A DNA stretch of 64,000 bases, taken from assembly GCF_003334785.1 (NCBI RefSeq), contig NZ_QOWV01000006.1; one strand, 5' to 3'. This stretch comes from Escherichia coli. Lineage in GTDB: Bacteria; Pseudomonadota; Gammaproteobacteria; Enterobacterales; Enterobacteriaceae. This document shows, piece by piece, positions 1,978 through 54,864 of this stretch. Numbering within the stretch: the stretch's first letter is position 1; each line of letters opens with the position of its first letter. The notes under the pieces are model-generated. The model searched no databases. It was not told the origin of the DNA and was given only the letters and a program-made list of their open reading frames with translations. Made by a program: the position numbers and the translations under genes.

Positions 1978-2634
1978 ATGTCTGATAACGACGAATTGCA
2001 GCAAATCGCGCATCTGCGCCGTGAATACACCAAAGGCGGGTTACGCCGCCGCGATCTTCCCGCCGATCCATTAACCCTTTTTGAACGTTGGCTCTCTCAG
2101 GCTTGTGAAGCCAAACTGGCGGACCCTACCGCGATGGTGGTCGCTACCGTGGATGAACATGGTCAGCCTTATCAGCGCATCGTTTTACTCAAACATTACG
2201 ACGAAAAAGGCATGGTGTTTTACACCAACCTCGGCAGCCGTAAAGCACATCAAATCGAAAATAATCCGCGCGTTAGCCTGCTGTTCCCGTGGCATACCCT
2301 TGAGCGCCAGGTGATGGTGATCGGTAAAGCAGAACGACTTTCGACTCTCGAAGTGATGAAATATTTTCATAGCCGCCCGCGTGATAGCCAGATTGGTGCA
2401 TGGGTTTCGAAGCAGTCCAGTCGCATTTCTGCCCGCGGTATCCTTGAAAGTAAATTCCTGGAGCTGAAGCAGAAGTTTCAACAGGGCGAAGTGCCATTGC
2501 CGAGCTTTTGGGGCGGTTTTCGCGTCAGCCTTGAACAGATTGAGTTCTGGCAGGGTGGTGAGCATCGCCTGCATGACCGCTTTTTGTACCAGCGTGAAAA
2601 TGATGCGTGGAAGATTGATCGTCTTGCACCCTGA
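1978..2634 (+). CDS. pdxH: Pyridoxine/pyridoxamine 5'-phosphate oxidase
   Basis: 218-aa ORF, recognised PdxH. Confidence 0.95.
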
Positions 2635-2762
2635 AAAGATGCAAAAATCTTGCTTTAATCGCTGGTACTCCTGATTCTGGCACTTTATTCTATGTCTCTT
2701 TCGCATCTGGCGAAAAGTCGTGTACCGGCAAAGGTGCAGTCGTTATATACATGGAGATTTTG

Positions 2763-4037
2763 ATGGCAAGCAGTAACTTGATTAAACAATTGCAAGAGCG
2801 GGGGCTGGTAGCCCAGGTGACGGACGAGGAAGCGTTAGCAGAGCGACTGGCGCAAGGCCCGATCGCGCTCTATTGCGGCTTCGATCCTACCGCTGACAGC
2901 TTGCATTTGGGGCATCTTGTTCCATTGTTATGCCTGAAACGCTTCCAGCAGGCGGGCCACAAGCCGGTTGCGCTGGTAGGCGGCGCGACGGGTCTGATTG
3001 GCGACCCGAGCTTCAAAGCTGCCGAGCGTAAGCTGAACACCGAAGAAACTGTTCAGGAGTGGGTGGACAAAATCCGTAAGCAGGTTGCCCCGTTCCTCGA
3101 TTTCGACTGTGGAGAAAACTCTGCTATCGCGGCGAACAACTATGACTGGTTCGGCAATATGAATGTGCTGACCTTCCTGCGCGATATTGGCAAACACTTC
3201 TCCGTTAACCAGATGATCAACAAAGAAGCGGTTAAGCAGCGTCTCAACCGTGAAGATCAGGGGATTTCGTTCACTGAGTTTTCCTACAACCTGTTGCAGG
3301 GTTATGACTTCGCCTGTCTGAACAAACAGTACGGTGTGGTGCTGCAAATTGGTGGTTCTGACCAGTGGGGTAACATCACTTCTGGTATCGACCTGACCCG
3401 TCGTCTGCATCAGAATCAGGTGTTTGGCCTGACCGTTCCGCTGATCACTAAAGCAGATGGCACCAAATTTGGTAAAACTGAAGGCGGCGCAGTCTGGTTG
3501 GATCCGAAGAAAACCAGCCCGTACAAATTCTACCAGTTCTGGATCAACACTGCGGATGCCGACGTTTACCGCTTCCTGAAGTTCTTCACCTTTATGAGCA
3601 TTGAAGAGATCAACGCCCTGGAAGAAGAAGATAAAAACAGCGGTAAAGCACCGCGCGCCCAGTATGTACTGGCGGAGCAGGTGACTCGTCTGGTTCACGG
3701 TGAAGAAGGTTTACAGGCGGCAAAACGTATTACCGAATGCCTGTTCAGCGGTTCTTTGAGTGCGCTGAGTGAAGCGGACTTCGAACAGCTGGCGCAGGAC
3801 GGCGTACCGATGGTTGAGATGGAAAAGGGCGCAGACCTGATGCAGGCACTGGTCGATTCTGAACTGCAACCTTCCCGTGGTCAGGCACGTAAAACTATCG
3901 CCTCCAATGCCATCACCATTAACGGTGAAAAACAGTCCGATCCTGAATACTTCTTTAAAGAAGAAGATCGTCTGTTTGGTCGTTTTACCTTACTGCGTCG
4001 CGGTAAAAAGAATTACTGTCTGATTTGCTGGAAATAA
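2763..4037 (+). CDS. tyrS: Tyrosyl-tRNA synthetase
   Basis: Class I aaRS HLGH motif (GHLVPL) and KFGKT (KMSKS-type) motif; 424 aa from MASSNL (ORF track starts 4 codons upstream at 2751). Confidence 0.95.
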
Positions 4038-51420: not shown

Positions 51421-52641
51421 GTGGTTGCTGAAAACCAGCCTGGGCACATTGATCAAATAAAGCAGACCAACGCGGGCGCGGTTTATCGCCTGATTGATCA
51501 GCTTGGTCCAGTCTCGCGTATCGATCTTTCCCGTCTGGCGCAACTGGCTCCTGCCAGTATCACTAAAATTGTCCGTGAGATGCTCGAAGCACACCTGGTG
51601 CAAGAGCTGGAAATCAAAGAAGCGGGGAACCGTGGCCGTCCGGCGGTGGGGCTGGTGGTTGAAACTGAAGCCTGGCACTATCTTTCTCTGCGCATTAGTC
51701 GCGGGGAGATTTTCCTTGCTCTGCGCGATCTGAGCAGCAAACTGGTGGTGGAAGAGTCGCAGGAACTGGCGTTAAAAGATGACTTGCCATTGCTGGATCG
51801 TATTATTTCCCATATCGATCAGTTTTTTATCCGCCACCAGAAAAAACTTGAGCGTCTAACTTCGATTGCCATAACCTTGCCGGGAATTATTGATACGGAA
51901 AATGGTATTGTACATCGCATGCCGTTCTACGAGGATGTAAAAGAGATGCCGCTCGGCGAGGCGCTGGAGCAGCATACCGGCGTTCCGGTTTATATTCAGC
52001 ATGATATCAGCGCATGGACGATGGCAGAGGCCTTGTTTGGTGCCTCACGCGGGGCGCGCGATGTGATTCAGGTGGTTATCGATCACAACGTGGGGGCGGG
52101 CGTCATTACCGATGGTCATCTGCTACACGCAGGCAGCAGTAGTCTCGTGGAAATAGGCCACACACAGGTCGACCCGTATGGGAAACGCTGTTATTGCGGG
52201 AATCACGGCTGCCTCGAAACCATCGCCAGCGTGGACAGTATTCTTGAGCTGGCACAGCTGCGTCTTAATCAATCCATGAGCTCGATGTTACATGGACAAC
52301 CGTTAACCGTGGACTCATTGTGTCAGGCGGCATTGCGCGGCGATCTACTGGCAAAAGACATCATTACCGGGGTGGGCGCGCATGTCGGGCGCATTCTTGC
52401 CATCATGGTGAATTTATTTAACCCACAAAAAATACTGATTGGCTCACCGTTAAGTAAAGCGGCAGATATCCTCTTCCCGGTCATCTCAGACAGCATCCGT
52501 CAGCAGGCCCTTCCTGCGTATAGTCAGCACATCAGCGTTGAGAGTACTCAGTTTTCTAACCAGGGCACGATGGCAGGCGCTGCACTGGTAAAAGACGCGA
52601 TGTATAACGGTTCTTTGTTGATTCGTCTGTTGCAGGGTTAA
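51421..52641 (+). CDS. mlc: ROK-family global regulator Mlc (DgsA)
   Basis: 406-aa ORF initiating at GTG; recognised Mlc. Confidence 0.95.
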   Translation: MVAENQPGHIDQIKQTNAGAVYRLIDQLGPVSRIDLSRLAQLAPASITKIVREMLEAHLVQELEIKEAGNRGRPAVGLVVETEAWHYLSLRISRGEIFLALRDLSSKLVVEESQELALKDDLPLLDRIISHIDQFFIRHQKKLERLTSIAITLPGIIDTENGIVHRMPFYEDVKEMPLGEALEQHTGVPVYIQHDISAWTMAEALFGASRGARDVIQVVIDHNVGAGVITDGHLLHAGSSSLVEIGHTQVDPYGKRCYCGNHGCLETIASVDSILELAQLRLNQSMSSMLHGQPLTVDSLCQAALRGDLLAKDIITGVGAHVGRILAIMVNLFNPQKILIGSPLSKAADILFPVISDSIRQQALPAYSQHISVESTQFSNQGTMAGAALVKDAMYNGSLLIRLLQG

Positions 52642-52765
52642 CATTTTTTAACTGTTCTACCAAAATTTGCGCTATCTCAATTTGGGCCAGGAAAGCATAA
52701 CTTAGACTTTCAAGGTTAATTATTTTCCTGGTTTATATTTGTGAAGCATAACGGTGGAGTTAGTG

Positions 52766-53461
52766 ATGCTGAAGCGTTTCTTTATTACCGGTACAGACAC
52801 TTCTGTAGGGAAAACGGTGGTTTCCCGCGCATTGCTACAAGCGTTAGCCTCCCAGGGAAAAACGGTTGCGGGATATAAACCCGTAGCGAAGGGGAGCAAA
52901 GAGACACCCGAAGGGCTGCGTAATAAAGATGCCCTGGTGTTGCAGAGTGTTTCAACCATCGAACTGCCTTATGAAGCAGTTAATCCTATCGCGTTAAGCG
53001 AAGAAGAAAGTAGCGTGGCGCACAGTTGCCCAATCAATTACACCCTCATTTCAAACGGCCTGGCAAACCTGACCGAAAAAGTCGATCATGTCGTGGTAGA
53101 AGGGACTGGCGGCTGGCGCAGTCTGATGAATGATTTGCGTCCACTCTCTGAATGGGTAGTGCAGGAACAACTGCCGGTGTTGATGGTTGTCGGTATTCAG
53201 GAAGGTTGCATTAACCATGCACTGCTAACAGCTCAGGCGATCGCCAACGACGGGCTGCCGCTCATTGGCTGGGTGGCTAACCGAATCAACCCAGGACTGG
53301 CGCATTATGCGGAAATCATTGATGTGCTGGGTAAAAAACTTCCGGCACCGCTCATTGGTGAACTGCCTTATCTGCCGCGCGCCGAACAGCGTGAACTGGG
53401 GCAATACATCCGCTTAGCTATGCTGCGCAGTGTGCTGGCGGTAGATAGAGTCACGGTGTAA
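52766..53461 (+). CDS. ynfK: Dethiobiotin synthetase paralog (BioD2)
   Basis: 231 aa from [17 protein letters not shown] (P-loop). Confidence 0.9.
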
Positions 53462-54670
53462 CGTCCGCGAAATTACCGACGCAATTACGCAGGCAATCAA
53501 TAAACCGGGGAGTAGCTGATACTCCCCGGTCATTTCACATATCATCAACGTCGACATAATCGGCGCGTGCGTGGTCGCCGCCAACAGTGTCGCCATCCCG
53601 GTCAATCCGAGTAAAAGTGTAATTTCTTCGCCATCAGGGAACCATAATCCCAGGCTACGACCATACAACATGCCAATGGCAAGACCGATAAATAGCGTCG
53701 GTGTAAAGACCCCACCGGGTGCGCCGGAACCGCTACTCGCCAGCACGGCACACAGTTTACAAAGGAAGATCCCGGCAATGATCATTAACAGTGGTGGGGC
53801 GGTTAAAAAGGATTGTACGGTGCTATAGCCGTTGCCCCACACTGCAGGTGTGAACAGGGAAAGCAGACCCACGATCAACCCGCCTAGTGCCAGTTGCCAG
53901 GGCGGCGCAAGTTTGAGACTCACAAATCCACGATGACAGGCGTTCATTAACGTTAACAACAGTGGTCCGCACAGACCTGCCAGCACACCTGTACTGATAA
54001 TCAGCGCATAGTCACGAGCCTGAACCGTCACTGAGAGTTGTACGTTGTAGAGTAACGCGTCGCTATGATTAATCAGATTGCTAACCAGCAATGCCACGAC
54101 GGCGGAAATAATCACCGGGCCGAGAGAGGCCAACATCATAGTGCCAAACAGCACTTCGGCTATAAATAAACTGCCAGCAAGCGGGGCACGATAGGCCGCA
54201 GCCATTCCCGCCGCGGCCCCACAGGCGATCCATAATTTCCACTCCTGGCGTGGCGTAAAACGTTGGGCAAAACAGGAGGCGGCAAGGGCAGCTTAAAGAA
54301 TCATCGCACCTTCGCGACCAATTGCACTGCCGCTGGTTACTACCAGCAGAGAGGCAAGCGATTTAACCAGGCTTGCTGCGTAATCGAACTGTCCATCGGT
54401 TTGCAACGCTTCCATATAATCGGTCGGCGCATGAGGGCGTTGTTGGGTAAATTTCTGCCAGCCCATCAGCAACAAACCCGCCGCCAGTCCGCCGAGCGCC
54501 GGAGTTAGCAACCGTCGCCAGGGGGAAAGGTTTGTCGCTGCATTGACCAGACTGCCGGAGTCATTATTGAGGAACAACCACTCCAGTAGCAGCATCGCAT
54601 GACGAAACCCGGCAACGGCAAAGGCCGCGAGAATACCGACGACTGTTGCGATAAGCAGACGGCGGAACAT
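53414..54670 (-). pseudogene. clcB: CLC-family Cl-/H+ transporter ClcB, interrupted by an in-frame TAA at 54293-54295
   Basis: Track ORFs 54293-54730 and 53414-54205 share a frame; read-through from MFRRLL to the terminal HS gives exactly 418 codons with a GREG motif just upstream of the stop. Confidence 0.6.
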
Positions 54671-54864
54671 AGTGCGCAGATCCGGATAGATGTGTAGATG
54701 ATGCATGAGCAGAAATGGGCAATGAAACACGGGCGACTATTTTGCGGCAAAAGAGGCCAGCCGCAAAAGCAGTGCGTGCTTTAAGAGATAAAAAAACGTG
54801 ACACTGTAACCTATTATTGCCGGATTGCGCGTAATCGTCACCATCCGGCAATATTACGGTGATC

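Follow-up and report, generated by a model that had tools for sequence, protein, structure and literature searches.

A convergent overlap between ynfK and clcB of Escherichia coli is dual-coding and conserved, and a hairpin within clcB is a candidate 3'-end element of the ynfK mRNA

The window analysed here is a 64,000-nucleotide stretch of the Escherichia coli chromosome in which mlc, ynfK, clcB, dmsD, and ynfH follow one another in that order, with dmsD and ynfH on the minus strand (Table 1). The 6 kb surrounding the junction of ynfK and clcB differ from K-12 MG1655 by 3 bases. The ynfK gene, whose current name is bidA, shows no DNA differences from K-12 b1593, and its product matches the BioD structures 1a82 and 1dts with an E value of about 3e-65. 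ClcB matches structures of ClcA (E about 1e-26); its coding sequence is given here from the K-12 start, and PGAP places the start at 54706.

Table 1. Features of the ynfK/clcB locus, in positions of the window
Feature	Position	Strand	Basis or detail
mlc	51421-52641	+	
ynfK (bidA, BioD paralogue) CDS, 231 aa + stop	52766..53461	+	ORF; annotation; BioD homology
clcB CDS, 418 codons from K-12 start	53414..54670	-	ORF; annotation; ClcA homology
Dual-coding overlap, 48 bp	53414..53461	both	YnfK 217-231 + stop; ClcB 404-418 + stop
YnfK 11-residue C-terminal extension past the BioD end, with V-D-R motif	53426..53458	+	BioD comparison
ClcB D-S-I-Y codons, residues 407-410	53441..53452	-	opposite YnfK V-D-R-V
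Equivalent of K-12 1666514 (-), Rho region peak	53471	+	10 nt past ynfK stop
Conserved hairpin	53504..53530	+	11-bp perfect stem, 5-nt loop (E. coli)
Premature stop L126* (TTA to TAA) in clcB	54293..54295	-	comparison with K-12

The two genes converge and share their 3' ends. The TAA stop of ynfK occupies 53459-53461 on the plus strand and the TAA stop of clcB 53416-53414 on the minus strand, each inside the coding sequence of its partner, which in the case of clcB is a pseudogene in this strain. Each gene contributes 15 sense codons and a stop to the shared segment, and the frames are in register on identical triplets, such that codon position 1 of one gene faces position 3 of the other and the two second positions face each other. 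The original prediction of a 48-bp overlap is thus borne out by direct reading of the ORFs and by two annotations: the curated MG1655 record (clcB 1665315-1666571 on the plus strand, bidA b1593 1666524-1667219 on the minus strand) and the PGAP record of L001, a strain 100% identical over the 2.1-kb query (bioD 1567-2262, clcB 2215-3507). Correction of the gene ends had been named as what could abolish the overlap; we ran that check, and the stops still overlap. No such correction is possible, because stop codons fix the 3' ends and leave them free of start ambiguity. Among the genes of this window, the antisense in-register frame contains stops at 2.5% of codons, which gives a chance of about 0.68 that 15 antisense codons are open. 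The open antisense stretch is therefore unremarkable, and its conservation is what exceeds chance.

The C terminus of BioD (224 aa) aligns opposite residue 220 of YnfK, and the overlap therefore corresponds mainly to the 11-residue extension of YnfK. The motif of this tail, xDR[VI]xA, is kept in loci with and without clcB. On the ClcB side, the overlap encodes the D-S-I-Y residues that close the last helix and then a variable tail, which runs for about 8 residues after the conserved SIY motif. In distant ClcB-like CLC proteins, the C terminus lies 2-5 residues past a comparable [SG][IV]Y motif.

To place the overlap in a broader context, we considered both E. coli genomes and a species panel. 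Of 5426 complete E. coli genomes, 5216 carry the 146-bp segment comprising the overlap and the hairpin described below at an identity of 99% or more, and some E. coli strains carry IS1 or IS30 in the matched region, which includes clcB. Orthologues of both YnfK and ClcB occur in dozens of genera. The species panel comprised 80 loci, one per species, across the Enterobacteriaceae: 64 with an intact convergent clcB, 12 without clcB, and 4 with a clcB remnant only. Every one of the 64 species with both genes has the overlap, at lengths of 27, 39, 45, 48, or 66 bp, each a multiple of 3. Escherichia, Klebsiella, Kluyvera, and Raoultella share the 48-bp form, Citrobacter and Salmonella have 45 bp, Enterobacter and Leclercia 66 bp, and a few others 27 or 39 bp. 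This variation arises from shifts of the clcB stop only, the ynfK stop being fixed in position. YnfK is 231 residues long at 80 of 80 loci, and because its length and tail motif are the same in loci that lack clcB, the end of ynfK is independent of the partner gene. Of the 80 species, 16 lack the partner or carry it in degraded form, with ynfK retained throughout, and clcB seems generally dispensable. The overlap is an old and stable tail-to-tail arrangement of two real genes, for which a special regulatory role is not needed.

The species that lack clcB serve as natural controls for codon choice in the last codons of YnfK (64 species with clcB versus 12 without). At Val226, all 64 species with clcB use GTA or ATA, which read as Tyr in antisense ClcB in 64 of 64, whereas GCC, GTA, GCG, and GTT are found in the species without it. 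Arg228 is AGA (38 species), CGA (19), or GGA (4) opposite a ClcB Ser in 61 of 64, and mostly CGT or CGC once clcB is missing. The same holds for Ala231, which is GCG in 57 of 64 species, opposite ClcB Arg, but GCC in 7 of the 12 controls. Even the stop codon follows the pattern: TAA or TAG, the antisense of a ClcB Leu codon, ends ynfK in 64 of 64, whereas TGA ends it in 8 of 12 controls. Reciprocally, a Leu or Ser codon of ynfK (TTA, CTA, or TCA) lies opposite the clcB stop. Near-invariant synonymous sites in the overlap fall in both proteins, at R405, I409, and H417 of ClcB and at V226 and A231 of YnfK. Both frames of the overlap are under purifying selection, and the segment is genuinely dual-coding; the 12 species that lost clcB show that the partner strand dictates the ynfK codons, down to rare codons for Arg, Val, and Leu and the choice of stop.

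In the strain under study, clcB is interrupted by L126*, and in the PGAP annotation the gene is a pseudogene that contains an internal stop. The 41-mer with the mutant base at its centre occurs in 9 of 5426 complete genomes and its wild-type counterpart in 5410, and on this sequence evidence L126* is a rare, recent, and lineage-restricted allele. The overlap sequence is that of K-12. The suggestion that the nonsense codon makes the overlap matter more consequently finds no footing, given that the allele is rare and the overlap unchanged. Through Rho-dependent polarity, untranslated mRNA is terminated early. Because clcB is untranslated past codon 126, early termination should lower convergent transcription into ynfK rather than raise it. 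The clcB side of the overlap would no longer encode the tail of a functional protein here, and the practical point for this strain is that ynfK is intact and clcB a recent pseudogene.

Past the ynfK stop we observed a conserved hairpin. It begins 43 nt beyond the stop, within clcB codons 381-389 (T-G-E-Y-Q-L-L-P-G), and its arms (53504-53514 and 53520-53530) are made of the codons for ClcB M-T-G-E-Y and L-L-P-G. The 8-bp core pairs 53505-53512 with 53522-53529 and has the consensus CCGGG[G/C]AG / CT[C/G]CCCGG. The 84 nt past the ynfK stop fold with a predicted energy of -28.8 kcal/mol (z = -5.1 versus shuffles), and the 33-nt hairpin segment with -21.5 kcal/mol. The stem is found in 64 of the 64 species with clcB, at 8-11 bp and -13.7 to -23.5 kcal/mol. 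No Rfam family matches it beyond a chance match at E = 0.55, and a scan for promoter and terminator consensus sequences gave counts no higher than in shuffled sequence.

Much of both arms is set by conserved ClcB residues, and 6 of the 11 pairs use first or second codon positions that these residues fix. The stem could accordingly be a by-product of the T-G-E/Q-Y...L-P-G residues and codon bias, with no function as RNA and with ynfK transcripts reaching diffuse Rho-dependent ends. The 3' ends of ynfK and clcB are absent from the curated Term-seq tables of Adams et al. 2021 (PMC7815308), where expression is low, which is in keeping with such diffuse ends; the TERMITe and SMRT-Cappable-seq supplements likewise hold no entry for ynfK or clcB. 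The synonymous sites speak against a by-product. We scanned the final 200 codons of clcB across the 48 species that could be aligned without gaps. The 122 conserved degenerate codons have a mean synonymous entropy of 1.32 bits, and only five are near-invariant: three sit in the ynfK overlap, and the other two, Thr381 (ACC in 48/48) and Pro388 (CCC in 48/48), have third bases that are paired in the stem. CCC is a rare Pro codon in E. coli. The invariant synonymous sites outside the overlap are thus exclusively ones that pair.

Pairing is also maintained where the protein changes. The core pair 49-63 is C:G in 35 species and G:C in 21, and its partners are the first base of the ClcB Glu/Gln codon and the third, synonymous base of a Leu codon. 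This Leu codon is CTC in 21 of 22 species with Glu, and CTG or TTG in 37 of 42 species with Gln. Overall, 92.8% of alignment cells are paired, versus 19-44% when the partners are slid, and the covariation score of 0.165 (0.107 when shuffled) is reached by 0 of 500 shuffles. Only two or three independent events may underlie the main compensatory switch, and such a small number of phylogenetic events for the Glu/Gln change would sit comfortably with a by-product. The tracking of Leu codon by Glu or Gln, together with the persistence of the stem motif beside ynfK after loss of clcB, nevertheless makes that account unlikely. The hairpin is maintained by selection on synonymous sites.

Because the hairpin lies within one gene and just past the end of the other, we asked which of the two it serves. 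It is kept in all 4 species that have only a remnant of clcB. Within 45 nt past the ynfK stop, 5 of the 12 species without clcB show this stem motif, as CCGGGGAG/CTCCCCGG or CCGGGCAG/CTGCCCGG. At two of the loci, L017 and L014 (Citrobacter amalonaticus-like), the stem is followed by runs of T7-T8 and forms a canonical intrinsic terminator, and in Trabulsiella (L046), the stem is a homologous remnant of the clcB hairpin region that now lies 12 nt from the ynfK stop. The clcB-less loci L040 and L044 have different canonical terminators at that position, and no hairpin follows ynfK at two Kosakonia loci. In four clcB-less species, the hairpins past ynfK have energies of about -17 kcal/mol, which do not stand out from a background with a mean of -14. 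We set aside an energy-only test in these species, for which the best-of-window background already reaches -14 kcal/mol. Since the energies are not outliers, the argument from clcB-less species relies on their having an identical stem motif and on the Trabulsiella homology.

The converse situation was sought with a word-indexed protein search for ClcB, whose matches were confined to the Enterobacteriaceae. The nearest ClcB-like proteins from outside the enterobacteria are 45-49% identical; the three of their loci that were examined have neither ynfK nor the hairpin, although this divergence is too great for them to decide the matter. The retention of the hairpin in species with a clcB remnant and in species without clcB ties it to ynfK rather than to clcB. 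We slightly favor its being a 3'-end or terminator element of the ynfK mRNA, and give about even odds to the fuller proposal of a selected RNA element that serves ynfK and is written in the codons around the ion-pathway tyrosine of ClcB. If so, the information in the T-G-E/Q-Y...L-P-G stretch of clcB would be two-layered, the Glu or Gln that precedes the tyrosine in ClcB and a synonymous Leu codon would evolve in concert to keep the neighbor's stem, and the stem would outlive clcB and, on gaining a U-tract, become an ordinary intrinsic terminator.

How transcription of ynfK ends bears directly on the claim that the overlap rules out an intergenic terminator. The claim is trivially true, there being no spacer, but it misleads in that a conserved hairpin is embedded in clcB past the ynfK stop. 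On the ynfK-sense RNA, the hairpin is a G+C-rich stem-loop of the kind found in intrinsic terminators. The plus-strand U-tract is absent: the stem is followed by CAUUUCACAUAUC, the plus-strand sequence past it is CAUUUCACA, and the scan called no plus-strand terminator. This tail is fixed by the ClcB C-E-M codons in all species.

Published data point instead to Rho. Adams et al. 2021 (PMC7815308) report a Rho region at K-12 1666514 on the minus strand, assigned to ynfK as primary and to clcB as antisense, with upstream/downstream reads of 85/11 untreated and 292/159 with bicyclomycin, and a Rho score for ynfK of 4.2 at a significance of 1.5e-6 (supplementary file 2). Increased read-through of ynfK upon Rho inhibition is thus seen in the published bicyclomycin data (PMC7815308), at a coarse resolution (800-nt windows) and with a peak that lies upstream of the hairpin, not downstream. 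Rho-dependent transcripts have been found to end just past stable stem-loops without a U-tract, with the rut site downstream (Dar and Sorek 2018, PMC6061677). At the present locus, the C/G ratio is 1.1-1.6 over 53450-53780, so that C exceeds G for about 300 nt past the hairpin. A putative Rho-dependent end with a protective stem-loop is compatible with the ynfK hairpin.

These observations suggest how ynfK expression could be brought to a close without intergenic space. Because there is no spacer between the genes, the 3'-end signal of ynfK would be accommodated inside clcB. Lacking a U-tract, the hairpin would be akin to the Rho-dependent class in which a stem-loop shields the 3' end of the transcript, and its most likely role is to mark the 3' end of the ynfK mRNA and to protect it. 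Transcription that runs on from ynfK into clcB antisense would be halted by Rho, as the coarse bicyclomycin data indicate.

The original prediction had also held that the arrangement implies antisense overlap or transcriptional interference, and the two parts fare differently. By the geometry of the overlap, full-length ynfK and clcB mRNAs are necessarily complementary over at least 48 nt. Such pairing is what regulatory convergent transcription would require, in which the genes repress each other, in the manner of an excludon, through collision of RNA polymerases or cleavage of duplex RNA by RNase III. Both sides could be active under anaerobic conditions, since ynfK is a direct target of activation by FNR, as is the ynfEFGH-dmsD operon immediately upstream of clcB (PMC3688515). 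In the per-gene tables of Huang et al. 2020 (PMC7373196), which cover aerobic laboratory conditions only, clcB has about equal sense and antisense total RNA (4.62/3.61 RPM), and both genes yield some double-stranded RNA captured by p19, at low to moderate levels of 8-31 RPM.

The same tables weigh more heavily on the other side. Both genes are weakly expressed, antisense RNA of ynfK is about 7% of sense (19.66/1.34 RPM), and sense and antisense levels of both genes are essentially unchanged, with no rise, in the rnc-14 and rnc-38 mutants (Huang et al. 2020, PMC7373196). In the portion of that supplement examined, neither gene appears outside the per-gene tables, and these aerobic data do not contain the combination of substantial antisense RNA from the partner and RNase III decay that characterizes an excludon. 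ynfK-sense RNA seems to extend across clcB, and in the same tables clcB-sense RNA over ynfK is slight. Read-through from ynfK is curtailed by Rho (Adams et al. 2021, PMC7815308), and the length and tail motif of YnfK are unchanged in the 12 species without clcB. With a conserved hairpin and a reported Rho-dependent region past ynfK, weak antisense RNA on ynfK, and no effect of RNase III in the tabulated data, the step from overlap to interference is unsupported, and we regard mutual repression as quite improbable.

For transcripts of clcB, we found no conserved structure inside ynfK that could terminate them, the only synonymous islands there being the first codons and the overlap; our default guess is that they end within ynfK by Rho-dependent termination. 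Could the hairpin instead act in the minus-strand clcB mRNA, as an internal attenuator or terminator when translation uncouples? In Escherichia, the stem is followed on the minus strand by TTTATTGATTG, which was flagged as terminator-like, and outer G·U pairs favor that strand in many species. Within the 11 bp there are 47 G·U wobbles for the plus strand and 33 for the minus strand, and the minus strand has 55 more at the next outer pair; we dropped G·U asymmetry as a guide to the functional strand because the pattern does not discriminate. The U-rich tail is conserved only within Escherichia, the Leu codons being changed to CTG elsewhere, the hairpin outlives the loss of clcB, and termination at this point would yield a clcB mRNA without a stop codon. 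Since the clcB stop comes only some 90 nt later, the hairpin cannot be a productive terminator of clcB, and a role in the clcB mRNA is very unlikely indeed.

Taken together, the evidence is best explained by a stable dual-coding overlap in which a ynfK 3' hairpin lies inside clcB and Rho stops transcription beyond it, a reading to which we assign a probability of roughly 60%. The overlap is of a textbook type and already annotated, and alone it changes nothing; its value is as a clean and well-controlled example. The hairpin, if confirmed, would show where a 3'-end signal is located when intergenic space is absent, and would mean that the synonymous sites of a membrane-transporter motif can be held by the RNA structure of a neighbor. 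This is relevant to genome recoding and to the reading of so-called silent variants.

Conserved pairs of convergent overlapping genes in prokaryotes were reportedly described by Rogozin et al. in 2002. About 7% of gene overlaps are convergent, and in this orientation alone long overlaps can be genuine (Palleja et al. 2008, PMC2478687). Although long overlaps in databases are often misannotated (PMC2478687), an annotation or sequencing artefact can be dropped as a practically nil prospect for ynfK/clcB: the stop codons make both ends unambiguous, the sequence is identical in thousands of independent genomes, K-12 carries the same annotation, the arrangement is conserved across genera (64 species) with a dual-coding codon signature, and Palleja et al. 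(PMC2478687) themselves single out convergent overlaps as ones that can be real. Like the conserved convergent pairs (PMC2478687), ynfK and clcB are real genes on opposite strands whose overlap is a multiple of 3, is conserved across species, and plausibly arose by 3' extension of ORFs in the antisense frame poorest in stops. They differ in two respects: most of the putatively real long convergent overlaps of Palleja et al. (PMC2478687) are conserved in very close species only, whereas ynfK/clcB spans many genera of the Enterobacteriaceae, and its length varies by the clcB stop only, with the ynfK stop fixed. The overlap is already known, being annotated in E. coli K-12, and is largely an ordinary member of this class; the embedded conserved hairpin is a modest new detail.

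Three further systems help to place that detail. Excludons and antisense 3' UTRs (ExcludonFinder, PMC12288877) resemble the present locus in having opposite-strand neighbors with necessarily overlapping transcripts, but the ynfK/clcB overlap is short, both genes are expressed at low levels, and the tabulated aerobic data show no sign of mutual exclusion or of RNase III action. The bidirectional terminators of Ju et al. 2019, as described in bioRxiv 10.1101/2022.10.23.513370, likewise involve a convergent pair and a palindromic stem-loop able to form in nascent RNA of both directions. Those elements are reported to be Rho-independent and lie between the two stops; the hairpin studied here lies within clcB rather than between stops, which sets it apart from a bidirectional collision terminator, and Rho dependence has been reported on the ynfK side. 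The third is the class of Dar and Sorek (PMC6061677), with which ynfK shares a stable stem-loop without a U-run, an excess of C over G downstream, and bicyclomycin-sensitive read-through. It differs from that class in that the curated Term-seq tables list no precise 3' end at its stem-loop and in that this stem-loop is placed within functionally important codons of the convergent gene.

Of the two genes, clcB seems to be expendable, unlike ynfK. Among the 80 Enterobacteriaceae species, each represented by one locus, clcB is absent or degraded in 16, whereas ynfK is intact, at 231 aa, at every locus. Some E. coli strains also carry an IS1 or IS30 element inside the region matched by our 2.1-kb query, which includes clcB (matches H9-H11).

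The strain examined here bears a premature clcB stop, L126*, and PGAP annotates the gene as a pseudogene in strains that have it. Few strains share the allele: of 5426 complete E. coli genomes, 9 contain the mutant 41-mer, compared with 5410 that contain the wild-type version. Besides L126*, the 6 kb around the overlap between the ynfK and clcB 3' ends differ from K-12 at only two positions, one within clcB and the other within the ynfH ORF.

Read on the clcB sense strand, the conserved 11-bp stem inside clcB has a terminator-like score in Escherichia, where the hairpin lies ≈90 nt ahead of the clcB stop and is followed by TTTATTGATTG. This T-rich tail derives from TTA and TTG leucine codons of clcB and is an Escherichia feature that is not conserved in other genera. 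With clcB untranslated, as in this strain, the hairpin could act as an internal terminator.

Features and loci bearing on the state of clcB
Feature	Position or loci	Strand	Remark
Terminator-like hairpin, clcB sense	53503-53531, tail to about 53493	-	terminator-like score
clcB L126* (TTA to TAA)	54293-54295	-	rare allele
clcB codon 3 CAC to CGC (H3R)	54663		relative to K-12
Single substitution in ynfH ORF	56155		relative to K-12
Loci without clcB	L014, L017, L033, L040, L044, L046, L056, L060, L061, L074, L076, L079		
Loci with clcB remnants	L012, L022, L050, L053		

At the other end of ynfK, the mechanical ORF opens with a GTG at 52754 (235 aa), and both annotations place the start at the ATG at 52766, giving a 231-aa protein (MLKRFF...) that aligns with the BioD N terminus. 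Because the synonymous sites of codons 3-5 (AAG CGT TTC; 52772-52780) are nearly invariant across 63 species, the sequence comparison suggests that the translation-initiation region of ynfK is under constraint.

The window holds a second convergent pair of long ORFs, 33397-34800 (+) and 34797-35738 (-), overlapping by 4 bp (34797-34800). The ynfK-clcB overlap itself varies in length, falling to 27 bp in E. coli strain E69 (locus L004, about 3670-3696), which represents one divergent E. coli lineage; there clcB stops earlier, at Q412*, which shows that the final ClcB residues are expendable.
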